64,000 nucleotides of DNA from a virus. The notes below the pieces were generated by a model. That model made no database searches. It worked only from the letters and a program-made list of their open reading frames with translations, and was not told the origin of the DNA. The position numbers and the translations under genes were made by a program. The stretch lies in IMG/VR virus record IMGVR_UViG_3300032753_002463, positions 32,933 through 96,932 of that record. One strand, written 5' to 3'. Below, piece by piece: positions 17,154 through 53,561 of the stretch. Each line of letters starts with the position of its first letter. The stretch's first letter is position 1.

Positions 17154-18401
17154 CTAATTATGATATTTTTCGCGAAGATGCAGTTTAGAGGATTGAAGTT
17201 CTACATCCATAATATTACATTCTATAGTTTCCCCAATCATGTAATCTTTTACTAACTTTTCTAATTCTTCCTTTTCTATTAATCCAGTAAGTCCATTATC
17301 TAATTTAACAAAAACTCCAAAATTCTTAATCTTTGTTACTGTTCCAATATAAATTGGTTCTTCGAAATGTACACTTATACTTTCACTATTATCCCTCATT
17401 ATACATACATTCTTCATTCTTTGAAGTTCTATGCTTTTTACATCGGGTTCTTTAACGGTAAGGACAATTCTTTGTGGATTTTTTAAATCTATAACATAAA
17501 ATTCTGCTCTATCTCCTGACCTATAAGGTATATTGGTAGAAAAATCTACATACTCTTCAGCTGGTATAAGACCCGTATAATATTCATCCCATTCAACAAA
17601 TACTCCAGCAGAGGAAGTTCCCGTAACAGTACCAGTATATTTTTGTGTTAATGAAAGTTCTCCTACCTTTGTATGAATGATATTTTTTAGGTACTTTTTG
17701 AAGGATACGACAAAAATATCTCTTTTTTCATCATACGTTTCAACCATAACCATTATTGATTTACCAACAAAAGAATTGAAATCAATAATCCTATTAGCAG
17801 CTGCTAAAGATCCAGGAAGAAAACATTTAATGCCAGATAAATTTACCATAAATCCACCAGGACAAAGATCCTCTACCTTAACAAGGAATGCACTGCGTTC
17901 ATCTTTAATTGCTCTTAATAGCTCGCTCTTTAATGAATTCTCATATCCTTGAGATACAGAACCATTATAATTTCCGGACCTATCAGTAAAAACTACAACA
18001 TCTAATACTGAGCCTATTTCCATAGTAATAGGAGGAAATCCTAATCTTGCTATTGCTTTTTCTTCTTTAGCAACATCAATAATAACGGATTGCCCTATTC
18101 TTGTTTCAGCAATAGCAGTATTATTCTTAATACTCCTAATTACAACCCTTAGAACCTCCTTATCTTTAAGCTCTTTGCTTCTTAGGGGGTTCTCAGAATC
18201 AAAATTTTTCTCATAATAATCCTCGTATAGATTATTTAATGTGTCAAATTCGTCTGGTTTGTACTGAGTAGAAGTATAAGCTCTACTACTTTTTCCTCTA
18301 GGACCCTTGTCATAGAAATTTTCTTCAAAATAGTCCGTGTATTTTTCATTTAACAATTCACGTACTTCTGGTTCGTAACCAGTAACTTCTTTTGTGTTCA
18401 T
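17154..18401 (-). CDS. Ribosomal protein bS1-like protein (multiple S1 domains)
   Basis: GGFMVNLSGIKCFLPGS (D2-like), YTGTVTG...GVFVE..TGLI and GTVTKIKNFGVFVKLDNGLTGLI...EL S1 repeats. Confidence 0.85.
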   Translation of the reverse strand: MNTKEVTGYEPEVRELLNEKYTDYFEENFYDKGPRGKSSRAYTSTQYKPDEFDTLNNLYEDYYEKNFDSENPLRSKELKDKEVLRVVIRSIKNNTAIAETRIGQSVIIDVAKEEKAIARLGFPPITMEIGSVLDVVVFTDRSGNYNGSVSQGYENSLKSELLRAIKDERSAFLVKVEDLCPGGFMVNLSGIKCFLPGSLAAANRIIDFNSFVGKSIMVMVETYDEKRDIFVVSFKKYLKNIIHTKVGELSLTQKYTGTVTGTSSAGVFVEWDEYYTGLIPAEEYVDFSTNIPYRSGDRAEFYVIDLKNPQRIVLTVKEPDVKSIELQRMKNVCIMRDNSESISVHFEEPIYIGTVTKIKNFGVFVKLDNGLTGLIEKEELEKLVKDYMIGETIECNIMDVELQSSKLHLREKYHN

Positions 18402-18424
18402 GCTTTTTATTTTAGCCTATGTTT

Positions 18425-18453
18425 GTTATAGTGCATAAGCGGTGAGAAATTTC
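18425..18453 (-). promoter_or_regulatory. GAAATTT-N16-TATAAC promoter-like motif (second class)
   Basis: Upstream of the S1-like gene; similar motifs at 30453-30481, 42083-42111 and 48605-48634. Confidence 0.4.
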
Positions 18454-18470
18454 AAATAATTTATAAATAT

Positions 18471-18923
18471 CTAAATACCCAATACTTTACCCAGTGGAGA
18501 TAAGGGACCACTTAATACAGCTTTACCAGTTGAGATGATAGTTGTAGCTCCTGACATCGCTTTTAATACGGGTAATAAAGCTTCTGGCGGATCAATACCT
18601 AGTCCCTGTAAACCAGCTAGGGCTGCTGGTAAATGCGCTTCTATTTGTTGTAATGCTAATGCGGCAGTGATTGGAACTGCCAATAAAGGCAATTGATTAA
18701 TTACATGGTTTATAAGGGTTTTTGTCTGCTGTATTTCATTTGTTGTTGATAGCATCACTGGTGAATTTGGAGGAATAGTATTGATTGATGCATCATTATA
18801 TCCTTGAGATTTTAATCTAGTAGTTACTACCTCTTTTGCCGTAGGGAATGAAATTCCTGACGGATTAGGGGCATTACTAATAAAACTAGAAATAGCTGAT
18901 TGTAATTCTTGACTTGCTGCCAT
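18471..18923 (-). CDS. Hypothetical hydrophobic protein downstream of the spike gene
   Basis: 150-aa Ala/Leu/Pro-rich ORF. Confidence 0.5.
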   Translation of the reverse strand: MAASQELQSAISSFISNAPNPSGISFPTAKEVVTTRLKSQGYNDASINTIPPNSPVMLSTTNEIQQTKTLINHVINQLPLLAVPITAALALQQIEAHLPAALAGLQGLGIDPPEALLPVLKAMSGATTIISTGKAVLSGPLSPLGKVLGI

Positions 18924-18933
18924 CTTTAATTGT

Positions 18934-19626
18934 TTAAGGATTCAAAGTATCACCAACATGTATCATACCAGTATAAGGATCTGTAGGTAAACAATTCCAT
19001 CCACCTTGAGCATTTGGTGTAACACTGCTACCGGTTGCTTTTATTTGTCCGGCCTCATTTATTGTAATAGAAGCTTGTGGATTAACTATATCAATTTCCC
19101 CAGTGGATTTCATGTTAATAGAAGATTTAGGGTTAACTAAATTAATTTCTCCCTTTGACGTAATATTTATTTTATCGTCATTAGTTATATTAATTGTAGA
19201 GCCTTTTGTTTCCAGCATTAGCCCTTTTTTTTGTGAATAAAAAATTTTAACAATTTCTATTCCATCATAAATTAGACTATGAAATCCTTCATATGAATCA
19301 TTAAGTTCCGCTTTTAAGCTTTGTCCGATTTCTTGTAGTCCCTTATATTCGGGGGAATAATAGTCTCCATTATTAAATACTACTCCTACAACTGAACCCA
19401 ATTGAGGTGTACTAAATCTACCACCCCCGCCATTATCCCCAAAAGAGGTATCTAGTGTTTGATATGCCCACGGGAGATCATCAACGGATAGATCGTCAAA
19501 TAAGCCAAAAACATTAATCTTACAACGGCCTTTCCTTTTTGGATCATCAATATCCATCACAACACCCAAAAAATGTTGGACATCCTCAATATCAATACCA
19601 ATCTCTTTACTTTTACTAGTTACCAT
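18934..19626 (-). CDS. Baseplate central spike (gp5/gpV-like OB fold plus beta-helix, no lysozyme domain)
   Basis: GVVMDIDDPKRKGRCKINVFG..LPWA, P.LGS.V.V.F.NGD...P; short beta-strand repeats; C-terminal C..DPYTG..H. Confidence 0.85.
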   Translation of the reverse strand: MVTSKSKEIGIDIEDVQHFLGVVMDIDDPKRKGRCKINVFGLFDDLSVDDLPWAYQTLDTSFGDNGGGGRFSTPQLGSVVGVVFNNGDYYSPEYKGLQEIGQSLKAELNDSYEGFHSLIYDGIEIVKIFYSQKKGLMLETKGSTINITNDDKINITSKGEINLVNPKSSINMKSTGEIDIVNPQASITINEAGQIKATGSSVTPNAQGGWNCLPTDPYTGMIHVGDTLNP

Positions 19627-19631
19627 ATTAA

Positions 19632-22412
19632 TTACTGATCTTTATTTATTATCGGATAATCCCTATTAGGCAAGCCAAGATCTTTTCCTGGGACTGTAGG
19701 ATAAGCATCCTTATTTGCTCCAAAATTAGGCTCTATTTGATTAGGAGTAGAAGATATCGGATACACTCGAGAATTTATACTAGGATATGTAGAAATATTT
19801 TTTGGATAAATTTTTTCAGATGGTATATTAGTAGTAGTGGAAATATTATTATAATCATTTTCAGTGATATTAGAATAAACCCTAGATGGTAATCCAAAAT
19901 CAGTACTATTATTAGAATAAACGTCCTCCTTAGGTACTATAGAATTAGTAATTCCCTGATCCTCGTATTCATTATCTGAGATATTAGGATAAACCCTTCC
20001 TGGTAATCCTAAATCAATTCCTGGATCTGTTTTATATAAATCTTCTATAGGGGGATAAACTTTTCCTATCGTATTGGTGTAATCATTCTCTTCAATATGA
20101 GGATATACTCTATCAGGAAGACCTAAATCAACCCCAGGATCTGTTTTATACAAATCTTCATTGGGTATATTATATACTCTTCCTGGTAAACCTAAATCAC
20201 TTCCTGGATCATTTGGATATTCGTCAGCAACAATGCTTGGATAAACCCTATCAGGAAGACCTAAATCTGTACCCTCTACTGTAGGATAAACATCTTCTGA
20301 AGGTGTAGGATAAACCCTACTAGGCACGCCAAGATCACTTCCTGGATCATTTGGATATTCATCATCAACTATATTAGGATAAACTCTCGAAGGTAAGCCA
20401 AGATCAACACCTTCAACAGTAGGATAGGTATCTTCTGAAGGTGCAGGATAAACCCTATCCGGCACACCTAAATCGGCTCCTGGAACTGTAATATAATCAT
20501 CTTCTGTAATATTTGGATAAACTCTAGAAGGTAGCCCTAGATCTGTACCCTCGACTGTAGGATAAACATCCTCTGAAGGCGCAGGATAAACCCTATCCGG
20601 CACACCAAGATCACTACCAGGGTCATTTGTATACTCGTCATCAACTATATTTGGATAAACCCTATCAGGAAGACCTAGATCAACTCCCTCGACAGTAGGA
20701 TAAACATCCTCTGAAGGTGCAGGATAAACCCTATCAGGTACACCAAGAGCTGTAGCCTCATTAGAATAGTCTATATCATTAATTGTTGGATAAACTCTAG
20801 ATGGTAATCCAAGGTCTGTTCCCGGGTTATTAGAATAAACATCCTCGCTAGGAGTACTATAAATCCTATTTGGTACACCAAGAGCTGCACCTTCATTAGA
20901 ATAATCAACATCACTAATACTAGGATAGACCCTAGATGGTAACCCTAATGATCCGGTAGAGGAAGGATTATTTGTTATGGATTGTATTGCACCTGATACA
21001 TTTCCTTGCCCAAGATTACTAATTCCTTGTGTTAGTGAGGATAAAAGACTACCCTGGTAAACATTACCTAATACTGCTTGTGATACGATAGGAGAATATT
21101 TTTGTATTACAGAAGATACTGAATTATTGATAAAATTATTTGCTAATTTAGCAAACAAATTACCATCATTATTTACGCTATAATCAGTAGCTAATGTAGA
21201 TCCAGCTAAATTCCAGCTGTCTGCTATTAGTATTGGAGAAAATTGGGATTGATTTTGTAATAAATCCGATAATATGTTATATTGTAACTTCTTTTCTATT
21301 ATTTTACCGACGTGAATTTTGAATCTATTATCGACAGGCTTTCTATTATCTGCATTACTTAATGTACTTGGTATATGAGCATACTCATCAAAATCAAATT
21401 CGCACTGATCTAATTGATACATGAATATGTATGGCTCCAATTTAGAAAGACTTCCATAAACACTATCCCTAGATTGCAACGGATCGCTAGCATTAGGTGG
21501 ACCTGCTGGTGTGTTTAATATGCCGGATGATTGAGCAATATTCCCAACAGTTGTAGTTAGATTACTAATAGCAGAATTACCAAATGGATTTAATACATCT
21601 GTTAAATTGCTAGTTAGATGCATATTTCTTAGCTCTGTAACAATTATCCACATTCGAAATTTTCTAAGGTTTTGTGGTATTACAGATTTAAGATTTATAG
21701 TGTCATAAGTAGCCTTTCTATATAAATCTGCCATAGCAGTTACTCTTAAATCAATTGAATCCAAACAATTGAATGTTAAAATTCCACTCCTGGATATTTT
21801 TTCTTTCACAGAATCACCCGCATATGATCTGGACTGTGGTATTTTTAATAAAGAATCTAATCCTTCTACTGATTGAATAAACCAGGGGCTTTTAGCATTA
21901 ATACCCTGCAATATGTTTCTAAAACCAATTAAAGCATCTGCTCTATTGGAGCTAGACTGAGCAGAAGATCCGCCGCCTGGTGCACTACCATTTTCTGCAC
22001 TGGACCTCCTTTGTGTTAGATATCCTTTAGCGCTATAGAAATAAAAATTCTGGGTAACATTAGGGACTAAATTATTTTGTTTATCAGTTCCACTAATACT
22101 TACCCTGATTTGCTTAGATAATGAAAAATAATCTACACCAGCACCAATATGTGGCATGTTTATCTGATCTGCAACACAAAGTAATGGACTTATAGGTAAA
22201 AATGTTTCTTGGTCTACAGAATTACCTGGATTTAAATCAAATAATAATCTGAATCCAAGATATGTAGGATCCTCTTTCTGACCAGATGTAGTAGTTTGAA
22301 GTCCTGTGAGAAAATTATTCCTATCTTTATCCACACCAGTATTCAATAGACTATTACCTGGATTACCAGAAGCGGGAAAATTTTGTTGTAGTCCGTTTAG
22401 AAAGTCTGCCAT
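19632..22412 (-). CDS. Tail/baseplate protein with long C-terminal tandem peptide repeats
   Basis: 926 aa in the baseplate hub operon; globular N-terminal domain, then ~15 LG(L/V)PxRVYP repeats. Confidence 0.6.
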   Translation of the reverse strand: MADFLNGLQQNFPASGNPGNSLLNTGVDKDRNNFLTGLQTTTSGQKEDPTYLGFRLLFDLNPGNSVDQETFLPISPLLCVADQINMPHIGAGVDYFSLSKQIRVSISGTDKQNNLVPNVTQNFYFYSAKGYLTQRRSSAENGSAPGGGSSAQSSSNRADALIGFRNILQGINAKSPWFIQSVEGLDSLLKIPQSRSYAGDSVKEKISRSGILTFNCLDSIDLRVTAMADLYRKATYDTINLKSVIPQNLRKFRMWIIVTELRNMHLTSNLTDVLNPFGNSAISNLTTTVGNIAQSSGILNTPAGPPNASDPLQSRDSVYGSLSKLEPYIFMYQLDQCEFDFDEYAHIPSTLSNADNRKPVDNRFKIHVGKIIEKKLQYNILSDLLQNQSQFSPILIADSWNLAGSTLATDYSVNNDGNLFAKLANNFINNSVSSVIQKYSPIVSQAVLGNVYQGSLLSSLTQGISNLGQGNVSGAIQSITNNPSSTGSLGLPSRVYPSISDVDYSNEGAALGVPNRIYSTPSEDVYSNNPGTDLGLPSRVYPTINDIDYSNEATALGVPDRVYPAPSEDVYPTVEGVDLGLPDRVYPNIVDDEYTNDPGSDLGVPDRVYPAPSEDVYPTVEGTDLGLPSRVYPNITEDDYITVPGADLGVPDRVYPAPSEDTYPTVEGVDLGLPSRVYPNIVDDEYPNDPGSDLGVPSRVYPTPSEDVYPTVEGTDLGLPDRVYPSIVADEYPNDPGSDLGLPGRVYNIPNEDLYKTDPGVDLGLPDRVYPHIEENDYTNTIGKVYPPIEDLYKTDPGIDLGLPGRVYPNISDNEYEDQGITNSIVPKEDVYSNNSTDFGLPSRVYSNITENDYNNISTTTNIPSEKIYPKNISTYPSINSRVYPISSTPNQIEPNFGANKDAYPTVPGKDLGLPNRDYPIINKDQ
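19656..20948 (-). repeat. Coding tandem repeat, 66-69 bp (22-23 aa) units alternating A/B
   Basis: DLGLPDRVYPNIVDDEYPNDPGS / DLGVPDRVYPAPSEDVYPTVEGT. Confidence 0.9.
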
Positions 22413-22413
22413 T

Positions 22414-23925
22414 TTAGCTTGTTACTGGTTCAGGTACAGAAGCAACGCCGTCGTTAATGGTCCATTGTCTTTTCCCTAGCCTTAATATTGTTTTTAGTTC
22501 TCCTCCCCTAAATTCGATTGAAGTTCCTAGTATTATATATTTACCACTTAAGAATACATTTAAAACTGTTTCACCTGCATAGGATTTTTTGTCCTGCTCT
22601 ACCGGACCAATTTGCCCGGCTACATCCTTAGGTGAGGTATGTACTATTCTCACTGGAACATATTGGCCCCTATAAATCCATGGTACATAGGATCCTAATT
22701 CAATATCTATGAAAATTTTATAATTCTCCAGCTTATTTATTAGATTTTGTACTGGTGCCTGATGTATGTTTTTATGTGTATTGTCAAAATATCTAACACC
22801 CGCCCATTCCTTCTTGTATTCATCCAGATAAACACTTTCGTTTGGTCTTCCTCTTAATATGATGTCATTATTTCCTAGTGTTTTAGGTGTTACTGATTCA
22901 ATTGGATATTTAACATATTTTTCTCCTGGTGTTGGAACATCTAAATTTGCACTATAGAACTCAAGAAAAGTTTTATATCCATATTTATTAACAACATAGC
23001 CTGCACTATTAGAAACAGTATAGGATTTTATAAAAAATGGATATGTACCCCATTGTGGATCATTGGTTAAAAGTAACGGAAATTGTGCGTCACTAGTTTT
23101 TTGATTTGAATCTAATCCTCCTACTAAACCGTAGCTTGGTCCAATATTTGCTAAAATTGTATCACCTTCTGGGTCTGTTGAATCTTCCCCGAATAATTGT
23201 TTGTTAATATTAACAAATGTCAGATTATAATATGGATCAATCCACCAATCAAATGCATCCTCCTCTGATTTCCAAGATTTGGAAACTACAGAGTCTATAA
23301 ATTCTAAATTCGGTAAATTCGGATTAATCCATGTCATCTTGTCAGCTGTATTAGACTCATTGGAAGAAAATCCCAAATTAAGGTCCTTAGCAACTTTTCT
23401 TAATGTTTCCCACGATGTCATTCCACTATAGGCTTGGCAATTATGTTGGAATATTCTTGGTATCCTTAATTGAGCTTTAACGATAAAAGTATAATAGACA
23501 GAGGATCCTTTGTAATTTTCTGGCATACCATCAATTGCCTCTGGTCCTGGACCTGTTACCTCTACTATAGTATAGTCATGTCTTATTGGTTTATATGCTT
23601 CTGAATGGGATTTTAAATAAAGACATAAGAGATCTCCATCTTTTGGATATCCAGTAAATAAAAATTGGGTTTCATAAATTTTAAATACCACTAACAATTC
23701 GGGTAAAACAGAATTCATATCTATTTTAAGATATTCAATTGCTCTAACGGTAAATGAATTAATATTGATGAATGGCATCAATGCTCCAATAGTCATTTCT
23801 TGCCTATCACTAGAAGCAGCTACCTTTTGCTTATCGTCTGCTTTATAAACATCAATAATACTCAATTCATCCAAAACTATAGTAGGTGGATCATATTGTA
23901 GTATTGCTTTTTTTTCGTTAATCAT
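22414..23925 (-). CDS. Probable baseplate hub protein (gp27-like)
   Basis: Lies between gp53-like and spike genes; TSWETLRKVAKDLNLGF..N, WINPN, LSGKYIILG motifs typical of hub proteins. Confidence 0.5.
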   Translation of the reverse strand: MINEKKAILQYDPPTIVLDELSIIDVYKADDKQKVAASSDRQEMTIGALMPFININSFTVRAIEYLKIDMNSVLPELLVVFKIYETQFLFTGYPKDGDLLCLYLKSHSEAYKPIRHDYTIVEVTGPGPEAIDGMPENYKGSSVYYTFIVKAQLRIPRIFQHNCQAYSGMTSWETLRKVAKDLNLGFSSNESNTADKMTWINPNLPNLEFIDSVVSKSWKSEEDAFDWWIDPYYNLTFVNINKQLFGEDSTDPEGDTILANIGPSYGLVGGLDSNQKTSDAQFPLLLTNDPQWGTYPFFIKSYTVSNSAGYVVNKYGYKTFLEFYSANLDVPTPGEKYVKYPIESVTPKTLGNNDIILRGRPNESVYLDEYKKEWAGVRYFDNTHKNIHQAPVQNLINKLENYKIFIDIELGSYVPWIYRGQYVPVRIVHTSPKDVAGQIGPVEQDKKSYAGETVLNVFLSGKYIILGTSIEFRGGELKTILRLGKRQWTINDGVASVPEPVTS

Positions 23926-24536
23926 TATGAACTAAATAAATTTTTCTTAGCAATTATTGCTTTAGTATTTGCAAGTGCAGTATTATTACTATTAGCTGTT
24001 CTAGAGATACCAATACTAGCACCAAAAATTAATTTTCCATTAACAACTTGGAATTGCTGATCACTAGGACCAGCAATATTTGGTGGTAAAGGTGTTGGAT
24101 TAGCAGAGGAAACATTAGTTGCATTCAAGTATGTTTGTCTTTCTGTTGATACCTGTGATATTCTACTAACTAATTGTTGTCTAAAACTAATTCTATCTTG
24201 TGTAGCTGCTGTTGTACCTCCAGCCGCTGGTGCTGCGGCAAGTAATGAGGTCATACTATTAGTAGAAGGAATTAGTAAAATATCTCCTGCATTTAATGAA
24301 AATGGATTAGATATAGAATTTAATTTCAGCAGAAGTCCCATATTATCCTGATTACCAGTATATAATTTACTAAATAAATCCGGCCTCATCTGAAATTCTG
24401 TTGGGCATACAGCTATATTAGAAAAAGAAACAGTACCTTGTGTTGGAGAACTAATAGAAGATGATGTAAGATCCACTATTTGTTGTCCATTTACTGTATT
24501 AATTGGTTTAACTGATAATACATCTATTGATAGCAT
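23925..24536 (-). CDS. Baseplate wedge gp53/LysM-like protein
   Basis: RPDLFSKLY......LLKLNSISNPFSLNAGDILLIP. Confidence 0.75.
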   Translation of the reverse strand: MLSIDVLSVKPINTVNGQQIVDLTSSSISSPTQGTVSFSNIAVCPTEFQMRPDLFSKLYTGNQDNMGLLLKLNSISNPFSLNAGDILLIPSTNSMTSLLAAAPAAGGTTAATQDRISFRQQLVSRISQVSTERQTYLNATNVSSANPTPLPPNIAGPSDQQFQVVNGKLIFGASIGISRTANSNNTALANTKAIIAKKNLFSS

Positions 24537-24549
24537 TCTTTATATTTTA

Positions 24550-26385
24550 TTATTCTCCAGTAGAAGCAAAATTGGAAACAACATTTTTTGTGTTATTAAG
24601 ATTTTGAGCGTCCGGATTTTTACCTGTTGGTGTAATATAACCTTGTGTAGAGCTTGTTTCTGGGAATTGACCAAGATACATTCTACCATTACCCCTATTA
24701 AACATACTTTCATATTCTCCCCTATGCCTTGTTCTAGCATGTCTTAATTCATAAACAGCGGTCATTCCTGTTGGAAAATCATCTGGTCCTAATTGACTAT
24801 CAAAGGTTATTTTAACTTGGTGACAAATTAAATTACCGATCATTGCTATTGGATTAAGGGGATTACCAACTACTAAATGCCAGTCACCTGTTGGATATCC
24901 ACTTAACATTAAAGGCTCATAAAAAATATTATTTAACATATTCTCTGTTAAAAGAAGTGTTAATGATTTATATAATCTGCCTTTTTCGTCTATTTTACCA
25001 GTTTGCTTAAATTGATCAAATTCCTGCCTTAAATCCAATAATTGTTTTTGATAATCCTTTGTTTTAGCCGCTACTGCTTCAGAGTGGCTTTTTTGGATTA
25101 AATCTGCAATCCATCTAACGGGATCCGTAATATATTGCTTATATCCTTTAGGCCCACCAGGAAATGAAAACCCCATTGTATTCGGATTTTCAAGGATCTG
25201 TGGAGTTAAAAATTTGCCATAATCTGTACCTAATGCTAATAGATTTGTTAATAGATCCATAAATAGCATTCTACTATTAATATCAGATACTGAAGTAAGA
25301 TCATATTTGAAGGTAACATTAAAAGAACTAGCTTTACCTGTTACACCTACCCCTCTAACATACATTTCATTAACAGTATTAATATCAACAAAGATTCTTT
25401 GACTTAGTGGATTAGACCCTTCCCTTAGATTATTATATAGATTCCTAGCATAAACCTTTTCGATATTATTAGGATCTAAAATTGCTCCACCAACAGTATT
25501 TGTTCCCTGTATGGCAGAATTTATATCAGAATTGAAGAGAGCTTTAAAAACACTACCAAATCCATTATAAAAACCAGGATCATTTTTAGTATAATTAGCA
25601 AAATCCTTTTGTCTTTTTGGTGTCCAGGTTAATCCACTTTCTATACCTATTATATCATTTAAATTATTACCAGTACCTTCACCAAAATAGCTAATAGCTT
25701 GACATATCGGAACATTAATCTGATTTTTTGCTAAATCACTTTTCGTAAAGCCGCTGAAATCTTGAGATATAACCTGACCATTTTGTGACGAAGGGTATTG
25801 TGCAGAAAGAGGAACCTTTAGATTATCGAACACAGGGGTAGGAAATCTTCTAAGTGTAATCATCCTATTATTAGGAATATTACCATATTCTTTACAGAAG
25901 ATGAAGTCCTTTGGATTATAAGGTTGACCAATAAAGGGACTGTTTGGATCTAAGTAGGATCCATTAATAGTAGTAGCATTAATAATATTAAAAGCTGTAG
26001 GATTCCTACTATTATCAGGGCTTACAATCTGACTATTAGAATACTTCTCTGAACCTTTGTACGAAAATTGTGTAGATGGTCCACTAGTAGTCAGATCTGG
26101 ATTATTAGTGGGATATGATGTCCCTAAAAGATAATAATTAAACAATCCACTAGGAGCACCTAGTTCACCTTCTGTAAATTCATAGAATAAACTTTTTGGT
26201 AAATTAAGATTTCCCCCCTCTGCAGGAAATCCACCATTAGGGCTATCGCCAGGAAATTGTGTAATGTATTTTCCTGCCTGTGTAGAAAGATCAAGATTAG
26301 GAGCACCTCCCCAAAGAGCTACTTGTGTTGGTTGACTATTACTGGATGATGTAGGAACATCTGCACTAATTGCGCTAAGATACAT
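24550..26385 (-). CDS. Probable tail tube initiator/baseplate protein
   Basis: First gene of the hub operon; WHLVVGNPLNPIAMIGNLIC...LGPDDFP; AATATATA motif upstream. Confidence 0.4.
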   Translation of the reverse strand: MYLSAISADVPTSSSNSQPTQVALWGGAPNLDLSTQAGKYITQFPGDSPNGGFPAEGGNLNLPKSLFYEFTEGELGAPSGLFNYYLLGTSYPTNNPDLTTSGPSTQFSYKGSEKYSNSQIVSPDNSRNPTAFNIINATTINGSYLDPNSPFIGQPYNPKDFIFCKEYGNIPNNRMITLRRFPTPVFDNLKVPLSAQYPSSQNGQVISQDFSGFTKSDLAKNQINVPICQAISYFGEGTGNNLNDIIGIESGLTWTPKRQKDFANYTKNDPGFYNGFGSVFKALFNSDINSAIQGTNTVGGAILDPNNIEKVYARNLYNNLREGSNPLSQRIFVDINTVNEMYVRGVGVTGKASSFNVTFKYDLTSVSDINSRMLFMDLLTNLLALGTDYGKFLTPQILENPNTMGFSFPGGPKGYKQYITDPVRWIADLIQKSHSEAVAAKTKDYQKQLLDLRQEFDQFKQTGKIDEKGRLYKSLTLLLTENMLNNIFYEPLMLSGYPTGDWHLVVGNPLNPIAMIGNLICHQVKITFDSQLGPDDFPTGMTAVYELRHARTRHRGEYESMFNRGNGRMYLGQFPETSSTQGYITPTGKNPDAQNLNNTKNVVSNFASTGE

Positions 26386-26433
26386 TTTGTTTGATATTTC
26401 TTATATATATTTTAGTCTCTAAAAAGGACTAAA

Positions 26434-26790
26434 TTATATCTTAAAAGCTTCTACCACAACATTTTTAATCTTGTTTTCCGAGATTAGCTCCTTTAATGCT
26501 TTAATTTTATCTTTTGAAGGATTAGTAAAATGCAAATATACTACATCATACCTAGAGGTTAGAAAGGATTCAATTTTTTTTACCATCATTTGATTTAATA
26601 TCCAATATTGGGTATTATTCAGTTCAGATGTGTTTTCAAAATTTTCCTGCACTAATTTATTCATATCAAGAAAGTAAGATTTTTCTTCTTCTATTTTGAC
26701 TTTCTTAATTTCCTTATACGTTAGGTTAGTAAGGTGTATTTTCAACTCTACAGTAGTTTTATTCACTATCATTATTATCAGGTTTAACAA
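26434..26790 (-). CDS. Hypothetical protein
   Basis: ORF; start may be 26772. Confidence 0.55.
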   Translation of the reverse strand: MLNLIIMIVNKTTVELKIHLTNLTYKEIKKVKIEEEKSYFLDMNKLVQENFENTSELNNTQYWILNQMMVKKIESFLTSRYDVVYLHFTNPSKDKIKALKELISENKIKNVVVEAFKI

Positions 26791-27007
26791 TATCAGACCA
26801 TTCTAGATCAGTAGATTGCGGTTTGTTTTCCTTCTTGTCTGCTTTTAATTGCTTGTTATGGTTTTCTTGGAGATGTGCTTGATGAATAGCTTGTCCTGCT
26901 CTAATAGTCCTTTCTAATTGTTCAGACCATTGCTTAAAAGTAGGATCCTTTTTAACTAATCCAAATTTCCGGGCCATTTCTCTCCTTTGTCTTCTTGATG
27001 GTAACAT
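26759..27007 (-). CDS. Small protein with Arg-rich N terminus (SRRQRREMARK)
   Basis: 82-aa ORF in the operon. Confidence 0.65.
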   Translation of the reverse strand: MLPSRRQRREMARKFGLVKKDPTFKQWSEQLERTIRAGQAIHQAHLQENHNKQLKADKKENKPQSTDLEWSDIVKPDNNDSE

Positions 27008-27009
27008 AA

Positions 27010-27513
27010 TTATTTAGTTGAATTATTGTTTAAAAGTTTAAATTGAAAAGTCTTCAGAAAGAGACTGTGTATAATTGCATTATCACAGTCTAAGGCTTGC
27101 GATACTTTGACCAAACTGAAGTCCTCAATATTATCATTGTTTTCATTTTCTTCAGCAATTAAGCCGGTGATATTAACACTAAACGAAGGCATGCCAGAGG
27201 AGTCATAATTTGAGGATTCAATTAATCCAAGAAATTCCCATTTATCAGTTTCTTCCATACGAAATCCTGTTATCTCATTCAATCCTCTTTTAGCTGTTGA
27301 AAATATATCAGAGTCCTCGTCTGCAATATTAATCATTATTGGAATAAATGGTTCATTATCACCAATAACACCAAGTTTATCAGGATATCCATTCTCAGAA
27401 ACAGTATATGGTAAAATAAGAACATATTGCATAATATGTTCTAAATTATAAGTTACTCCATCAGAAGTAAGCTTAATCTGCTTGTCCTGGTATAGTGTTT
27501 TGAGTTCTAACAT
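27010..27513 (-). CDS. Degenerate Nudix-fold protein
   Basis: STAKRGLNEITGF...WEFLG resembles the Nudix box AxRELxEETG. Confidence 0.5.
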   Translation of the reverse strand: MLELKTLYQDKQIKLTSDGVTYNLEHIMQYVLILPYTVSENGYPDKLGVIGDNEPFIPIMINIADEDSDIFSTAKRGLNEITGFRMEETDKWEFLGLIESSNYDSSGMPSFSVNITGLIAEENENNDNIEDFSLVKVSQALDCDNAIIHSLFLKTFQFKLLNNNSTK

Positions 27514-28090
27514 TTTTTACTGGAGTTATTTTTGCTAAATATATATCCTTTATAGCTTTTTTTAAAGCATCCCTAACTACCTCGATATCAAGATCCTTTG
27601 TTACATAATCAATTATCTCGTCTTCTGCATTTTCAAAGCTAGATATTATTACATCCCATAAAGCTTTCTTAGGAAGATTTATTGTTAAATTAAGGTCAAC
27701 ATCTACCCAATTTTCTTTTTGTTTCTTTAAAAGAGATGCAATAGCAGATTCTTCTTTTACTATCGTGTGCAATTCACTCCTCCCAGCACGTTTTGATGTA
27801 TTAGGTGCTTGTTTTGCAGGTTCAACTTTATCGAATGCGGTTTCATAAAAACCTTTTTCTACTTTTACCATATATTCATCCAATAGTGCTAATGATATAC
27901 GGCTTCCATCAGTAAAAACAAGATACTGTTGTCCATTAACTTCTATAACCTCTTTATAATGGTGTACATATCCAACACTATCGCCCTTGATCCATTGGTA
28001 TGAATAATTATCTAAATCGCTATGTGGATCCATATTACTATCTTTATTTGTGTTTCCCATGCCTAACATTTTTTTTATCAGATTTATCAT
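27473..28090 (-). CDS. Hypothetical protein
   Basis: 205-aa ORF. Confidence 0.65.
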   Translation of the reverse strand: MINLIKKMLGMGNTNKDSNMDPHSDLDNYSYQWIKGDSVGYVHHYKEVIEVNGQQYLVFTDGSRISLALLDEYMVKVEKGFYETAFDKVEPAKQAPNTSKRAGRSELHTIVKEESAIASLLKKQKENWVDVDLNLTINLPKKALWDVIISSFENAEDEIIDYVTKDLDIEVVRDALKKAIKDIYLAKITPVKNVRTQNTIPGQAD

Positions 28091-28092
28091 GG

Positions 28093-28350
28093 CTAATCCT
28101 CCTCTATTTTACAGATATAACCCTGCCCAATTAAATTTTTAACCCAATCTAAATAATCTTTACCTACTATCCATCTTTTATCGGGCTTCTTCTTATTGAC
28201 AATTTTCTCTGCTATTGCCAAATTGTCAAGAACTTTATCCGGATGCCTATAAATTTTCCATATTGTTCTTTTACCAGGACATGCTAAGTACAGATGTTTA
28301 CCATATTCAGGAAGTTCAGGAAATTCTAATTCTATAGTCACATCTGGCAT
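28093..28350 (-). CDS. Hypothetical protein
   Basis: 85-aa ORF. Confidence 0.6.
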   Translation of the reverse strand: MPDVTIELEFPELPEYGKHLYLACPGKRTIWKIYRHPDKVLDNLAIAEKIVNKKKPDKRWIVGKDYLDWVKNLIGQGYICKIEED

Positions 28351-28385
28351 TATATTTACTTATATCATGATTGATCAATAAGATT

Positions 28386-32104: not shown

Positions 32105-32105
32105 T

Positions 32106-44517: not shown

Positions 44518-44521
44518 AAAA

Positions 44522-44529: not shown

Positions 44530-44550
44530 AGTAAATAAAATAACTACAAA

Positions 44551-45018: not shown

Positions 45019-45046
45019 CAAATTAAATTTAATTGTTAAAATAACT

Positions 45047-45069
45047 ACCCACACAATTGTGTGGGTTTT
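45047..45069 (+). terminator. Intrinsic terminator (20-bp palindrome plus T tract)
   Basis: acccacacaattgtgtgggt-ttt. Confidence 0.7.
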
Positions 45070-45108
45070 AAATTGTATGGAAAATTGAAATGGTCTTTTA
45101 ATTTTCGA

Positions 45109-45116
45109 GATATATA
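45109..45116 (+). promoter_or_regulatory. GATATATA motif
   Basis: 16 nt upstream of the RimK-like ATG. Confidence 0.7.
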
Positions 45117-45132
45117 ATTATAATTAGTTCTA

Positions 45133-46605
45133 ATGGAAAAATCAATTAAAGATTTCGTATTTAAAGGAAAGCCCAAGGTTAAAAAGGAAAAACCAAGCTC
45201 ATTGATAGTCCTTACTACTAGATTAGGCAAAAGTGGTTCTATTGCTCCTACTGTAAAAAAACTCGTGGAGAAATGCAAAAAAAGGGGAATAAGATGTGTA
45301 GTTATTGATACACCCTATGGAGTAATAGAAAAAACGGAAAAAGGAACATATTTAATAGGTAATAAGGGAGAAGAAAAAACAGAGGTTGATGTATCTAATA
45401 CTATGATACTCCCTAGGAGATCCTCTATTGAAAATACTGCGGCAGTTAAATTTTTTCAGAAATTAGAAACTATAGGATTTACTGCAATCAATTCATTAAA
45501 ATCAGTTTTAATGTGTGAGGATAAATTGGAAACCTGTGAAAAATTATCAGAAAGAGGCATACCAGTACCAAAAACATCATTAATATCTAACATAAAAAGT
45601 GTAGATAGCGCAGTTGAAGAAATAGGTGGAAGATTTCCAATTATCGTTAAACTACTTAATGGTACAAAAGGCATAGGTGTTTTTCAAATAGATTCTCATC
45701 CATCCCTTATATCTTCGCTTCAAACAATTTGGAAACTTTCCCCTAATACAGAATTACTTTTACAGGAGAAGATTGAAGCTGAATACGATTTGCGTATTCA
45801 CGTTTTAGGCAACCGTGACGGCAGCGACGAAGGATACAATTATGAAGTTATTGGGGCAATGAAAAGGATTAAAATTGAGGGGGATTTTAGGACCAATTTC
45901 TCTCTGGGTGGAGAAACTGAAAAAGTGGAATTAACACCAGAAGTAGAGAAGATAGCTATTAAATGTGCAAAGGCAACAGGCTGTGGTTGGTGTGGAGTAG
46001 ATATCATAGTAGAGTCGGAAACTAAGAAACCCTATGTATTGGAAGTTAATGCTTCCCCTGGAACAGACGGTATAGAAAAAACCACGGATCTTCCAATAAC
46101 AGATATAGTCTTGGACTTTTTATCAAATAAAAAGAACTGGAGCCATCCAACAAAAATTATAGGATTTAGAGAAATTTTTACCGTAAAGGGTGTTGGAGAT
46201 TTTGTAGGAAAATCTGATACTGGTAATGGTGCTATATCTTGTTCCTTACATGCAGATTCATTTGAACAAATAGGCAAAGAAATTATATGGAGTATTGGGG
46301 ATAAGGAATATAAGAATAAAATAGTTGAATACTCTCACCCGGAAATTGGGGCAGAAACAGAAAAGAGGCCAGTTATTTTACTTGATGTAGAATTCGAGGG
46401 AACTACATATACTGATGTTAAATTTTCCGTAGTTGACAGAAAAACAAAGAGTACACCCCTATTAATTAATAGGTCCTTCATGGATAGAGCAGGATTAGTG
46501 ATCGATCCAAGTAGAACCTTTATAGTTACAGATAAACCTGAAGAATATGACCCAGCATCAGCTAAGGAAGGTTCAAGAGGTGGTATAATACTTTCTACCG
46601 AGTAA
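45133..46605 (+). CDS. rimK: RimK-family ATP-grasp ligase fused to a C-terminal RimB-like retropepsin protease
   Basis: EDK, GIPVPKT, FPIIVK..GTKGIGV, LLQE.I...DLRI, FRTNFSLGG, GVDI, LEVNASPG; C-terminal IGFRE, KSDTGN, SLHA, E.RPVI.L, DR.....LLINR.FM....IDPS. Confidence 0.9.
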   Translation: MEKSIKDFVFKGKPKVKKEKPSSLIVLTTRLGKSGSIAPTVKKLVEKCKKRGIRCVVIDTPYGVIEKTEKGTYLIGNKGEEKTEVDVSNTMILPRRSSIENTAAVKFFQKLETIGFTAINSLKSVLMCEDKLETCEKLSERGIPVPKTSLISNIKSVDSAVEEIGGRFPIIVKLLNGTKGIGVFQIDSHPSLISSLQTIWKLSPNTELLLQEKIEAEYDLRIHVLGNRDGSDEGYNYEVIGAMKRIKIEGDFRTNFSLGGETEKVELTPEVEKIAIKCAKATGCGWCGVDIIVESETKKPYVLEVNASPGTDGIEKTTDLPITDIVLDFLSNKKNWSHPTKIIGFREIFTVKGVGDFVGKSDTGNGAISCSLHADSFEQIGKEIIWSIGDKEYKNKIVEYSHPEIGAETEKRPVILLDVEFEGTTYTDVKFSVVDRKTKSTPLLINRSFMDRAGLVIDPSRTFIVTDKPEEYDPASAKEGSRGGIILSTE

Positions 46606-48007
46606 TAGAGAGGAAATGATCAATTGCTTCCTGTCTATAATTTTCAGGATTAATTACAATTTTCTCATTTTTTAATGGATATTTTTTACGAGTTAAAATT
46701 TCATCTGGTATAAGTCCCCTAAAGGTTTCTTTGAGTACTTTTTTGTCAGTCCTCATTTCTAATGGTAAGCTAAGTGCAAAAGAAATAATTTCTAAATTAA
46801 GGAAAGGATTTCTTAATTCTAGCGTATGCGCCATTGACATTTTATCTAATCTTGGAAGATGATAATATGTTAATTCGTGAAATATATCACTTCTTTGAGA
46901 ATCGTATTCATGAATTCTTCTATATCCCCCGAATAATTCATCTGCACCATCACCAGATAAAACTATTCTAGTATTAGTTCCTTTCTTAATAGCATCGAAT
47001 AGCATATATTGTGGAACTACACTTCCTAAATCAACCGGGGATTCATTCCAATGTGAATAAATCTCGTCTAATTTCCTACCAAAATTTGGATCATTAGAAT
47101 CCATTTTATAGTCTAAAAAATTGACTTTGATCCCCCAATAATTTTCACACATTTTCACATAATCATTATCGGGTCCATTGTTAATGGAATACCAACTCAC
47201 ATCAGCCCCAAGTTTTAAAAGTAATCCCCCAATAATACTGGAATCTAAACCACCACTTAATAAAATCGAGATTGGATAATCTAAACTCAGAAGTCTATTA
47301 CGCGTTGAATTTTCAAGTTTTTCCCAAAGCCAATCATATACATCATCATCTGATTTAAAGATGCTAAAATCGAAACTAAACTGATAATACGGACCGAATG
47401 TTTGCTTTATCTCTGGAGTTTTTAAATCCCAAAAATGTATATAATTATTTTTAAGTTTAGTTATATTTGTAAATGGGGTACTTTCGTTTGACATATATCC
47501 CCACTTTTTAACACCCCCGATAAATTCCTGACTTATTTTGGTATTTTCATTTATAAGTCCCTTTGCTTCTGAACAAATTTCACCCAATTCATTTGTATAT
47601 AGACACTTCTTTCCTAAGGGATCGGTAAAAGAAATTATAGTACCTTTTTTAGTATCTACTATACAAATTGCCCAAAATCCATCCCATGATTGGATATGCG
47701 GAGTATAGAGTGCATAAAACATTTGGGGCTCTCCTGTATAACTAGAGAAGAGGGATTTTAAATATTCTGTATCGGAATCATATTGTTTTGGATAATTAAA
47801 TATTTCTCCATTGAACAAAAGATATTTCCCGTCTCCCAAGTCTATTGGTTGAATCCATTGATCCCCAACCTTGGTTTGTATTGGTAATCTATGATGTACC
47901 ATGTTTAATCCATTAGGACCATCTACCTTACTATATTCAATACCTCTATGTGAAATTGAGTCAATTCTTTGCTGGGATAAATTATATCCTACTAATATTC
48001 CGCACAT
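46595..48007 (-). CDS. Asparagine-synthetase-like glutamine amidotransferase (AsnB family)
   Basis: MCGI, H.RL.I, QP, FNGEIFNY, SDTE, LLSGGLDSS, LSGDGADELFGGY, RLDKMSMAHTLE.R.PFL. Confidence 0.9.
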   Translation of the reverse strand: MCGILVGYNLSQQRIDSISHRGIEYSKVDGPNGLNMVHHRLPIQTKVGDQWIQPIDLGDGKYLLFNGEIFNYPKQYDSDTEYLKSLFSSYTGEPQMFYALYTPHIQSWDGFWAICIVDTKKGTIISFTDPLGKKCLYTNELGEICSEAKGLINENTKISQEFIGGVKKWGYMSNESTPFTNITKLKNNYIHFWDLKTPEIKQTFGPYYQFSFDFSIFKSDDDVYDWLWEKLENSTRNRLLSLDYPISILLSGGLDSSIIGGLLLKLGADVSWYSINNGPDNDYVKMCENYWGIKVNFLDYKMDSNDPNFGRKLDEIYSHWNESPVDLGSVVPQYMLFDAIKKGTNTRIVLSGDGADELFGGYRRIHEYDSQRSDIFHELTYYHLPRLDKMSMAHTLELRNPFLNLEIISFALSLPLEMRTDKKVLKETFRGLIPDEILTRKKYPLKNEKIVINPENYRQEAIDHFLSITR

Positions 48008-48008
48008 G

Positions 48009-48590: not shown

Positions 48591-48698
48591 TTTTATTCTT
48601 TATCATTCTAGAATAATCCTGTATGTAAAGTTTCTACTAATATAACTACTTTAACAAAATTAAAACGCCTTTAATTATCTTATTCAGAACTTTTTTAT

Positions 48699-48706
48699 TA
48701 TATTTG
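48699..48706 (+). promoter_or_regulatory. Bacteroidota-type -7 promoter element (TAnnTTTG)
   Basis: TATATTTG 4 nt upstream of the 48711 ATG. Confidence 0.55.
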
Positions 48707-48710
48707 TAAT

Positions 48711-51524: not shown

Positions 51525-51538
51525 TGATTTATAATATT

Positions 51539-52465
51539 TTATTTTGTCGTTGGTGTTCTAACTAAACGGCCGATATAATCTACCTTTAGTCTCATATAGT
51601 TTTTAAAAGCCTCTAATCTATTCTCTGCAGCTTTTTTGTTCCTTTCAATTTCTTCTATTTCTACATCATATATTGGAGCATTAGCTGCATATCGGGTTTT
51701 TTCTGATGTTAGGAATTTCTTTCTAGCATTGAGTTCATTTATTAATTCTTTATACTCGTCAAGATACCTTAATCTAATAGCAAATCCATCATGCTTCCAT
51801 TTAATAAGTTCCTGATCATTTCTTCCTTGTAGATATTGAAGAAAATATTCCCATTTCAAGCAATAAGGCTTATCAATTTTATAATTACCAATTTCTGAAA
51901 TTTCCTCTAATTCTCCATCAGGATCATTAGTAGAACCAGAAACAATTGTAGTGTCCCCAAGAGATTTTCTTAAATTTTCTATATCAGAAAATTGTGCTTG
52001 ATATGTATCTGCATATGGACCATTTTTATGTTTTTTAGCAACTTCATAAGCATAGGAAGCAATAATCTTATCTGCTTTAGCTGCCTCTCTATTATAATAT
52101 TCCGATAGCTTCTTATCTTTTTTTACTATCCTCATAATATCATCCTGAAAATTACCAATTTGGCTATTTCTGGATTTCTCAAAAGCATCCAATGCCTTCT
52201 TATTTATAAGGGCTTTTTGTTTTAATAAGGGACTAACCCCAGGAGACTTTACCTTTCTTCTTGAATCTAATGACTGCGACATATAAATATTATAGCTCAA
52301 TTCATTAGTCTTATCAATAAAATCCTTCTCAACCTTAATCATTTTATTGATAATAGTTTTTATCTTTGTGGAATTACTCGTCATCATAGACTTAACTCCA
52401 TCCGATATTGTATCAAGTAAATTCTCGTTGATGAATTTTTTATATTTCAGTAATTTTTTATTCAT
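51539..52465 (-). CDS. Coiled-coil putative internal head protein, paralogue of 52458-53561
   Basis: MNKKLLKYKKFINE N terminus; shared K(I/L)..I..KM...E..F.D and YYN blocks. Confidence 0.6.
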   Translation of the reverse strand: MNKKLLKYKKFINENLLDTISDGVKSMMTSNSTKIKTIINKMIKVEKDFIDKTNELSYNIYMSQSLDSRRKVKSPGVSPLLKQKALINKKALDAFEKSRNSQIGNFQDDIMRIVKKDKKLSEYYNREAAKADKIIASYAYEVAKKHKNGPYADTYQAQFSDIENLRKSLGDTTIVSGSTNDPDGELEEISEIGNYKIDKPYCLKWEYFLQYLQGRNDQELIKWKHDGFAIRLRYLDEYKELINELNARKKFLTSEKTRYAANAPIYDVEIEEIERNKKAAENRLEAFKNYMRLKVDYIGRLVRTPTTK

Positions 52466-53561
52466 TGCTTACGGTCGCTACTTTTTTTGGTACTGGTTTC
52501 TTTTTCTTTTTCTTCTTTATAATCCCTTGGTAAACTGGAAATTTATAATCAATAAGTTCTTTTTTTATACCCTCTAACTGTTCAGCGTAATATTTAACAG
52601 CATCTTTTAGTTGATCTGTACTTCCATCGGGAGCTAAAGAATTTACTCCATTAATTTTTAATTCTATTCTTCTTATAGCAGTACCCTTTTTAGCAATAAA
52701 TGACGATTCTTTTCTAGAATATTCAGATTTGGAATTTGATGGATTCATTTCCTCGTGATTTATCATCTCATAGATATTATTTTTATATTTAGTAGAGAGA
52801 ACATAAGCATCCTTCATTTTAGTTTCAGCATCTCTAAATATGGCAGATTTCCATTCTGGGCCTGGATCATATTTAGATATTTTGTTTTGTATTTGTTGGA
52901 CCTGATTTTGGACTTCTTCAGCTTCTTTCTTCGCTTCTTCTGGGGTACCAAAAATATCAGCAACCTTTTGTTGTATATTAGTATCTGTTTGGTATTTGGT
53001 TAATTGATATTTATTATCCGCCCTTTTCTTTTTAGCTTCTGCTGAATCCCTTGACCTCTTAAGATTATAATAATCAGCCTTTCTACTATTATCCTTTGTT
53101 ATAATATCTACCTCTTTTTCTAAATCATCCATAATAGTATTATAGGATTTAATTAAACCTCTCATTTGTGATTCTAATTCCTGAAGTCTAAGTTGAACTG
53201 GCCCCATTCTACTCTTATCTTGAGCTCTAAATTTTAGGTGAACGAGCTCTCTAAATAGTTGGATATATTCAGTTTCGATTTTATTCTCTCTATCAACAAA
53301 CTTATTTTCAGTATCATCCATTTTTTGAAGAATAGAATCTAATTTAGAAATATCTCCACCTAAATGCTTTGAAAGAGAATTTAATATTTTAGAGCCAAGA
53401 CCTTCTTTAACTGCTTGTACTGATTCTAATAAATTATATGTTGTTGAGCTTGTGTATTTTGTATTTCTGAGATATTCTGCAGCTAATTCTACATCTCCAT
53501 AACACTCTATAAGAGCTATTTTACAATCCTCGTAAGATTTCAGATTATTTATGAATTTCAT
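52458..53561 (-). CDS. Coiled-coil protein with EF-Ts-like (UBA-type) N-terminal motif and Lys-rich tail
   Basis: DCKIALIECYGDVELAAEYLR; C-terminal KKKKKKKPVPKK. Confidence 0.6.
   Translation of the reverse strand: MKFINNLKSYEDCKIALIECYGDVELAAEYLRNTKYTSSTTYNLLESVQAVKEGLGSKILNSLSKHLGGDISKLDSILQKMDDTENKFVDRENKIETEYIQLFRELVHLKFRAQDKSRMGPVQLRLQELESQMRGLIKSYNTIMDDLEKEVDIITKDNSRKADYYNLKRSRDSAEAKKKRADNKYQLTKYQTDTNIQQKVADIFGTPEEAKKEAEEVQNQVQQIQNKISKYDPGPEWKSAIFRDAETKMKDAYVLSTKYKNNIYEMINHEEMNPSNSKSEYSRKESSFIAKKGTAIRRIELKINGVNSLAPDGSTDQLKDAVKYYAEQLEGIKKELIDYKFPVYQGIIKKKKKKKPVPKKVATVSNE

Follow-up and report, generated by a model that had tools for sequence, protein, structure and literature searches.

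Does a phage which carries a homologue of ribosomal protein bS1 (S1), a RimK-RimB fusion enzyme and a supposed mimic of elongation factor EF-Ts, and which places promoter-like motifs very close to some of its start codons, possess one system for taking over the translation of its host? The question is raised by positions 17154–53561 of a 64,000-nucleotide stretch of viral DNA, hereafter the window, which represents bases 32933–96932, that is, the final 64 kb, of the 96,932-base IMG/VR record IMGVR_UViG_3300032753_002463. A single system had been posed as a hypothesis in a preliminary description of this DNA, and our analysis does not support it. Because the genes appear to be inherited vertically, are separated outside the phage group and fall under two promoter classes, we consider that the S1 homologue, the RimK-RimB enzyme, the all-helical protein once taken for the EF-Ts mimic and the promoter-like element GATATATA are probably separate conserved features of one T4-like Bacteroidota phage lineage, each an adaptation of its own, and not one dedicated system.

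All three genes (Table 1) were present, at conserved relative positions, in every related contig which spans the region; these contigs fall into two subclades. Co-occurrence, which the preliminary description had proposed as a check, thus holds throughout the phage group, but it would appear to be the vertical inheritance of core genes and not independent co-occurrence, and elsewhere S1 and RimK-RimB are found apart. No S1 homologue was detected at E<=1e-5 in phages with RimK homologues outside the group (Mosig, YerA41, GN1, cyanophages and Methylophilales phages), nor a RimK-RimB homologue in any of 15 S1-bearing Lak genomes. The promoters also differ in class: the S1 gene is preceded by a GAAAT-type element, the RimK-RimB and helical-protein genes by GATATATA.

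The lineage can be placed through its gp23-type capsid protein, whose matches in a collection of cultured and curated phages were of three kinds only: Prevotella Lak megaphages; phages of Tenacibaculum, Chryseobacterium and Flavobacterium; and Sphingomonas PAU-type phages together with six huge uncultured phages. The product of gmd (GDP-mannose dehydratase, window 30494–31489, minus strand) has 67% identity to that of a Sediminibacterium (Chitinophagaceae) metagenome-assembled genome (MAG), the runner-up reaching 52%, and this likeness appears to be the best host lead. Since the MAG contains neither a phage capsid gene nor a phage-type S1, we rejected the idea that it is a mis-binned phage and regard it as a bacterial genome. 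Based upon the capsid relatives, the gmd match and the lack of a phage capsid gene in the MAG, a Bacteroidota host is well supported by sequence comparison; Chitinophagaceae as the host family is only a lead. The record is 35% complete according to CheckV, and since related contigs of 219–248 kb are rated 79–86% complete the full genome should measure approximately 280 kb. A nucleotide search of the phage collection with window positions 17154–30000 returned zero matches, and no tRNA genes were found in the 97-kb contig. PHROGs, NCBIfam and Pfam scans brought up no additional translation-related gene in the window, and left without a match the helical protein and its paralogue as well as the acidic protein encoded upstream of RimK-RimB and some 20 neighbouring genes.

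The preliminary description had named the first product a bS1 homologue, and its sequence confirms that it is a genuine one. It matches the Pfam S1 family in two scoring stretches (2.5e-18), and a phmmer search against PDB revealed that residues 126–408 are collinear with residues 61–343 of E. coli bS1, that is, with domains D1–D4. D2 is the best-conserved part, its motif GGF.V.L.GI..FLPGSL being nearly intact. Residues 75–409 also align in a single stretch with the 391-position NCBIfam S1 model NF005208. All S1 equivalog cut-offs were missed widely, that for rpsA with 90 bits against 577. While the bS1 proteins of Chitinophagaceae measure 600–710 aa, this protein, with its 415 aa and four domains, lacks D5–D6. 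It belongs to a large, tight family of 370–415 aa, of which more than 100 clusters score below 1e-99, the contigs that carry them reaching 453 kb; identity to the window copy is 58–63% in one subclade of relatives and 46–53% in the other. S1 is a core gene of a large uncultured phage group.

Directly before D1 the bS1 proteins of Chitinophagaceae possess a conserved segment (consensus HDDFDWSVDKRNVSSYSKEEKEKYDKVYENTF). A hidden Markov model (HMM) built from this 38-aa N-terminal segment matched 119 of 120 phage S1 proteins, each time just before D1, with a median of 7 bits and a maximum of 16.3; for composition-matched shuffled sequences, which served as the control, the 99th percentile was 2.6 bits and the highest score 7.9. 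The motif was detected by the HMM alone, not by pairwise BLASTP. At the family level it thus seems clear that phage S1 retains a Bacteroidota-type N-terminal segment. In E. coli the N-terminal segment of S1 docks on the 30S subunit, where it contacts uS2.

Equivalents of the S1 promoter-like element, (TTG)GAAAT-N17/18-TAnnAT, lie upstream of S1 in both subclades of relatives, although by itself the pattern is weakly specific (6 of 23 genome matches are upstream of starts). It appears to represent a promoter class different from GATATATA, and from such a putative promoter the S1 leader would be approximately 15–35 nt long. We therefore picture, as a proposal, a shortened bS1 (anchor-like N-terminus plus D1–D4), transcribed from its own non-late promoter, which would most likely join or supplement the 30S subunits of the host and help to recruit the A-rich mRNAs of the phage, which are devoid of Shine-Dalgarno (SD) motifs. 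The homology and architecture of the protein are evident from its sequence; its binding to the ribosome we infer.

The second gene, described beforehand as RimK/RimB, likewise proved on sequence comparison to specify a genuine RimK-RimB fusion. Its product passes the TIGR00768 rimK_fam cut-off (168.8 bits versus 143.4), matches Pfam RimK at 2.8e-38 and in phmmer searches gave 2e-31 with RimK versus 8e-9 with LysX. It shares 27–30% identity with bacterial RimK, and failed the S6-ligase equivalog test (113.9 bits versus a cut-off of 331). The predicted structure (predicted local distance difference test score, pLDDT, 79) is nearest to the RimK structures of E. coli and Pseudomonas, ahead of LysX and ArgX, with template modelling (TM) scores of 0.81–0.86 against 5zct and 7qyr and a Foldseek E value of 3e-23 for 5zct. 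In the same model the C-terminal domain (approximately residues 340–470) is all-beta. Each of the 10 clade members scanned was matched by PF05618, the RimB family, with 2e-6 as the best E value; the window copy scored 23 bits, below the cut-off of 27. The DTG motif (FVGK.DTGNGA), demonstrated to be catalytic in RimB (PMC11957791), is invariant, and DTG is present in the homologues of Mosig and YerA41 as well.

Full-length homologues with 35–36% identity occur in Pelagibacter phage Mosig (36% over 88% of the length) and in Yersinia phages YerA41 and GN1, and shorter, RimK-only homologues in cyanophages and Methylophilales phages. In Mosig the gene sits between regA and the DNA polymerase gene. 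The enzyme belongs to a phage-specific RimK clade of T4-like phages with very different hosts, and would unite an alpha-L-glutamate ligase and a poly-Glu-specific aspartic peptidase in one late-transcribed protein. As an observation in its own right, residues 1–20 (45133–45195) form a disordered N-terminal extension (pLDDT below 40) which reads MEKSIKDFVFKG, and MD..LLEKFVFKG in relatives; bacterial RimK is not known to possess such an extension. Similar N-termini are seen in the acidic protein and in other late proteins, and the extension may be a capsid-targeting type of tag.

What might the enzyme modify? Presumably it adds Glu tails to some target and trims them, and bS6 is one candidate; E. 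coli bS6 ends in Glu-Glu. Among 21 Chitinophagaceae genomes bS6 ends in ..EA, G, S, V or I, and in Glu in none of the 21, which, the host being assigned by comparison, is weak evidence against bS6 as the target. The closest genome, that of the Sediminibacterium MAG, contains no clear RimK of its own.

The protein encoded next to the enzyme may be at least as good a candidate. It is the sole hyper-acidic protein of the 97-kb contig (43% aspartate plus glutamate, D+E, versus 20% for the next) and the sole one with five consecutive Glu residues. Its homologues, found in both subclades, are composed of 51–78% D+E with long poly-E/D runs, and both of their ends are conserved, M(D/E)KKILSFEEF at the N-terminus and RFDNFF at the C-terminus. 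As poly-Glu is cleaved by RimB at terminal as well as internal sites, and free poly-alpha-Glu is a product of RimK (PMC11957791), the acidic neighbour represents a concrete alternative substrate. Of 13 loci examined, 11 have its gene immediately before RimK-RimB; in two clade members the upstream gene is a different one. The association is that of one lineage, since it is missing from Mosig, YerA41 and these two members, and a terminator and a separate promoter intervene. The convergent overlap of the gene for an AsnB-like amidotransferase with RimK-RimB was kept in every relative examined.

The EF-Ts mimic, supposedly the third element, has largely fallen away. The core or dimerisation domain of EF-Ts, PF00889, had no match in the contig at E<=10, while control genomes were matched. 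When a profile of the first 55 residues of the helical protein, drawn from five close relatives, was run against PDB, the top match (E=9e-4) aligned residues 12–34 to residues 21–43 of E. coli EF-Ts, a length of 23 residues which we take to be the second and third helices of that factor. Pfam UBA/TS-N gave E 0.0023 and 18.2 bits, below the cut-off of 22.4. In the AlphaFold model (pLDDT 74) the protein is all-alpha, with two short helices (residues 7–19 and 24–34) followed by long ones, instead of the three helices of a UBA-like bundle, and Foldseek returned nothing below E=0.3 for it from PDB or BFVD; no usable match came from the ESM Atlas either. The family is a small one, 1.8 billion proteins having yielded 25 representative clusters. 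In its distant members the pattern DCK.AL..(x)GD.E.A decays, the conserved blocks being residues 53–92 and 160–180, and a whole-family profile did not recover EF-Ts at E<=10.

With a short likeness below the Pfam cut-off, no PF00889 and loss of the resemblance in the wider family, we rejected the EF-Ts identity. The simplest reading is that of a late scaffold, internal or accessory head protein which would contain a generic UBA-like helix-loop-helix. Its Lys-rich tail, KKKKKKPVPKK (window 52458–52500), occurs in the closest relatives only.

Late-promoter motifs had been placed 4–22 nt from most start codons. ATATATA is indeed the 7-mer with the strongest enrichment in the 80-nt regions preceding genes (before 22 genes versus 1.9 expected). 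GATATATA occurs 18 times in the contig, both strands counted, and 16 of these copies are situated 4–39 nt (median 16) upstream of a start on the same strand, where a first-order Markov model of these zones predicts 0.55 +/- 0.72; in reverse orientation the zones contain a single copy. In total number the element is at chance level (12 in the window versus 10.4 expected), and its signal resides in placement and orientation, not in abundance. It precedes 16 of 90 genes, 13 of the 40 with an upstream gap of at least 25 nt, and, between positions 17154 and 53561, 8 of 42 genes as an exact match or 10 with a relaxed pattern. The motif is therefore real, oriented and near to starts, but "most" was wrong and the distances reach 39 nt. 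It is 4–7 nt from the start in five genes. Upstream of the RimK-RimB and helical-protein orthologues it is kept after a terminator hairpin, and its distance to the RimK-RimB ATG is 16–18 nt in subclade 1 and 4–5 nt in subclade 2 (six loci).

The late promoter of T4 is a single element, TATAAATA. By analogy with it, and since GATATATA precedes the protease gene, the 57648–59912 gene and several tail-region genes, the label "late" is plausible. GATATATA consists of one -10-like element which precedes late genes in a fixed orientation, and it is probably a late promoter comparable to TATAAATA of T4. If transcription begins 5–7 nt downstream, the leaders would be approximately 0–17 nt long.

The A-rich leaders without an SD sequence stood up well. 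SD-like cores (GGAG, GAGG or AGGA) at positions -18 to -4 precede 6 of 90 genes, compared with 8.8 +/- 2.7 in random windows, and at positions -17 to -1 the content of A is 34–62% (at least 50% at about half of them) and that of G 3–17%. In E. coli leaderless mRNAs need no S1. Very short late leaders, if real, would offer less upstream RNA for S1 to contact, which argues against the link between S1 and late transcripts drawn in the preliminary description. A-rich leaders devoid of SD sequences are the usual pattern in Bacteroidia (PMC7797042).

Might the genes nonetheless work as a coordinated kit, S1 replacing host bS1, RimK-RimB glutamylating the C-terminal helix of bS6 beside the anti-SD and an EF-Ts-like protein engaging EF-Tu, with short-leader late mRNAs being favoured? 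The three genes do accompany one another in every sufficiently long contig of the group, one relative has bS21, and the genome is without SD motifs. Furthermore, in Bacteroidia the anti-SD is sequestered by bS6, bS18 and bS21, and bS6 contacts the last nucleotides of 16S rRNA through its C-terminal helix (PMC7797042). Such a kit is, however, very improbable in our view, given the absence of Glu-terminal bS6 from all 21 genomes, an EF-Ts likeness of 23 residues which is lost in the family-wide profile, promoter classes which differ between S1 and the other two genes, the lack of co-occurrence across lineages, and a RimK-RimB clade common to SAR11 and Yersinia phages. Of the proposed remodelling of the 30S platform the S1 part is reasonable, considering that a real bS1 which keeps D1–D2 is encoded by a Bacteroidota phage whose genome is A-rich and without SD motifs; the bS6 part is unsupported by the C-termini. 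We would also assign very little credence to a scheme in which leaderless or near-leaderless late mRNAs (GATATATA 4–18 nt from ATG) meet a retuned 30S platform, phage bS1 (and bS21 in some members of the lineage) replacing the host proteins and RimK-RimB, possibly carried in the virion, adding acidic tails near the bS6/bS18/bS21 anti-SD pocket, or in which RimK-RimB and its poly-Glu neighbour constitute a new phage polyanion system. That RimK-RimB acts on a phage substrate and not on the ribosome, extending or trimming the poly-Glu of the acidic protein or making free poly-alpha-glutamate, possibly amidated by the AsnB-like enzyme, is a possibility to be taken seriously, if a doubtful one. No other protein of the 97-kb contig exceeds 20% D+E or has a five-Glu run, and this one is encoded directly upstream; the gene block is conserved across both subclades, both activities are known from the bacterial enzymes (PMC11957791), and the candidate host bS6 has no C-terminal Glu. 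Against this, adjacency by chance amounts to about 2 in 89 and counts as a single evolutionary event, the two genes are set apart by a terminator and by promoters of their own, and the neighbour is lacking or different in the phages named above.

A function of phage S1 off the ribosome, be it as cofactor of a phage endoribonuclease, as mRNA-protecting factor or as RNA chaperone, seems unlikely. It would suit a T4-like phage, in that host bS1 activates T4 RegB according to work cited in PMC13157829, as well as the loss of D5–D6, a score far below the rpsA cut-off and the degenerate anchor motif of the window copy; Al-Shayeb et al. leave "on or off the ribosome" undecided (PMC7162821). Yet phage S1 keeps D1–D2, the ribosome-binding half in E. 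coli, with D2 the best conserved, and the N-terminal motif of the family resembles that of bS1 in the host phylum. No RegB-like gene turned up, though no search was aimed at one. It is more improbable still that GATATATA is an A/U-rich enhancer of translation initiation and not a promoter. Its nearness to start codons, 4–7 nt in the five genes and 4–5 nt in the six orthologous RimK loci, might suggest so, but the distance varies between 4 and 39 nt overall and shifts between orthologues from 16–18 to 4–5 nt, the element comes after terminator hairpins and marks the starts of gene blocks, and it resembles the single-element late promoter of T4.

Several points weigh against our preferred reading of separate features in one lineage, or against the roles which we assign to them. 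A bS21 gene in one near-complete relative (47.8 bits) would be compatible with a broader translation programme; the four other large relatives yielded none, and the peptide deformylase and EF-Tu-type GTPase families were not detected in any of the five large relatives searched. In the window S1 the N-terminal motif is weak, duplicated (residues 5–25 and 46–62) and degenerate, with scores of 1.4 and -0.9 bits which lie within the noise of the shuffled sequences. The acidic neighbour is absent beside RimK-RimB in Mosig and YerA41. A late promoter would be odd for a host-takeover enzyme unless the protein were packaged in the virion, and the YerA41 homologue was found in particle preparations, alongside many replication enzymes (PMC7354516). 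Finally, the host was assigned by inference.

The bS21 match is a 69-aa open reading frame (ORF) of relative G002 (244,850 bases; C1:18962–19114), in a part of the genome beyond the contig of the window. As regards YerA41, we rejected its "structural protein" label as firm proof that RimK-RimB is packaged, because the preparation also held polymerases, helicases and ribonucleotide reductase (PMC7354516). A link between the enzyme and the bulky thymidine modification of YerA41 was dropped, this modification being described as oligosaccharide-like (PMC9023294). At 8955–9311 of YerA41, some 3.6 kb from its RimK-RimB homologue, there is a gene with a LysW-like annotation. LysW serves as the carrier protein of LysX and ArgX, two ligases related to RimK.

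Neither S1 nor RimK-RimB is a new class of phage gene. S1 homologues of huge phages have been linked to missing SD sequences and proposed to hijack initiation (Al-Shayeb et al. 2020, PMC7162821), a paper which also cites Mizuno et al. 2019 for S1 in phages. The window family agrees with these in being a multi-S1-domain protein of large phages of Bacteroidota-type lineages whose genome is without SD motifs, and in the Lak and LR7565xx huge phages, too, an S1 homologue is combined with a capsid of the type seen here. It differs in forming a distinct family of four-domain proteins of 370–415 aa, with approximately 26–43% identity to Lak and LR S1 over partial lengths, and in the N-terminal motif which, at the family level, it has in common with bS1 of Chitinophagaceae. 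For RimK, Monier, Claverie and Ogata (2008) described a clade from marine T4-like phages with a C-terminal DUF785 (PF05618) and suggested a role in the translation of phage mRNA (PMC2530865); PHROG 2599 represents this known kind. The window enzyme has the same order, ATP-grasp then PF05618, and falls into the same phage-specific clade, but is found in a Bacteroidota phage, with a late-type promoter and in a block with the acidic and AsnB-like genes. Like the bacterial RimK, RimB and RimBK hybrid (Little et al. 2025, PMC11957791) it displays the RimK fold and the RimB DTG and would join both activities; unlike the hybrid, in which RimB is N-terminal, it carries RimB at the C-terminus, and it scores below the S6-ligase equivalog cut-off.

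The helical protein shares with the TS-N/UBA domain of EF-Ts only the alignment already described, and departs from it in having no core domain, two helices in place of a three-helix bundle, and for the rest long helices without a fold match. With this failure the would-be novelty of the locus is lost, S1 and RimK-RimB having been published as gene classes (PMC7162821, PMC2530865). GATATATA is akin to the T4 late promoter in being a single A/T-rich 8-mer, orientation-specific and closely followed by late structural genes, and in belonging to a phage whose head module is of the T4 type; its sequence is different, and so is the spacing to ATG of down to 4–5 nt, which would imply leaderless mRNAs.

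Three leads are new. How start codons are chosen without SD pairing in Bacteroidia is an active question in which bS1 is suspected to be relevant (PMC7797042), and a shortened phage bS1 with the N-terminal motif of the host phylum could serve as a ready probe of initiation there. The block of acidic protein, RimK-RimB and AsnB-like enzyme offers a candidate substrate for a phage enzyme family which has had none since 2008. The promoter–ATG spacing of 4–5 nt predicts leaderless late mRNAs.

Table 1. Position of the features of the window which are referred to in the text.
Feature	Position	Strand	Remarks
Baseplate wedge protein	10603–12318		
Amidoligase_2-like protein, 488 aa	15165–16631	-	Pfam PF12224 E=9e-4, below cut-off
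Four-domain bS1 homologue, 415 aa	17154–18401	-	Acidic N-terminal extension of ~80 aa, then D1–D4
Promoter-like element GAAAT-N18-TATAAC	18425–18453	-	23 nt before S1 start
Hyper-acidic protein, 155 aa	44551–45018	+	43% D+E, one EEEEE run; directly upstream of RimK-RimB
Terminator-like hairpin	45047–45066	+	Between acidic gene and RimK-RimB promoter; equivalents in relatives
GATATATA, late-promoter-like element	45109–45116	+	16 nt before RimK-RimB start
RimK-RimB fusion, 490 aa	45133–46605	+	Residues 1–18 disordered, tag-like; RimK ATP-grasp ~22–335; retropepsin-like RimB domain ~340–470; DTG 362–364
AsnB-like glutamine-dependent amidotransferase	46595–48007	-	Starts MCG; convergent with RimK-RimB, overlaps its 3' end
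Weak paralogue of helical protein	51539–52465	-	Without the N-terminal stretch; BLASTP E=0.004, 24% identity over 157 aa
All-helical late protein, 367 aa (supposed EF-Ts mimic)	52458–53561	-	Next after capsid gene; Lys-rich C-terminal tail
Sole EF-Ts/UBA-like stretch, residues 12–34	53460–53528	-	Profile and Pfam matches
GATATATA element	53578–53585	-	16 nt before helical-protein start
Terminator-like hairpin	53618–53645	-	After capsid gene, ahead of GATATATA and helical-protein gene
T4-type head module	53672–59912	-	Context block beside helical-protein gene
gp23-type capsid protein	53672–55441	-	Pfam Gp23 2.7e-39
gp21-type protease	55467–57587	-	Pfam Peptidase_S77 match
754-aa protein	57648–59912	-	Portal candidate purely by position; without family match

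In relatives the homologue of the Amidoligase_2-like protein comes directly after S1, while in the window a 137-aa protease-like fragment intervenes (16739–17152, minus strand). This ORF, in effect a second, truncated protease-like gene, partially matches the T4 prohead protease family (Peptidase_S77, E=3e-5, below cut-off); it is present in the closest relative (L004) and absent from four of four more distant relatives (L013, L015, L020 and L026). Missing from four more distant relatives, too, is the stretch between the amidoligase-like gene and a 256-aa baseplate-region gene, in which a GIY-YIG/NUMOD3 homing-endonuclease-like gene is located (window 13931–14593, minus strand). This one was recognized by Pfam; for two others (window 40600–41400 and genome 12166–13011, both on the minus strand) the assignment is based on the N-terminal sequence. 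Window positions 60457–62411 (minus strand), upstream of the head module, specify two further proteins, one resembling a PolB-type 3'-5' exonuclease (PF10108, 4.5e-16) and the other a UvdE-like UV endonuclease (PF03851, 1.4e-9).

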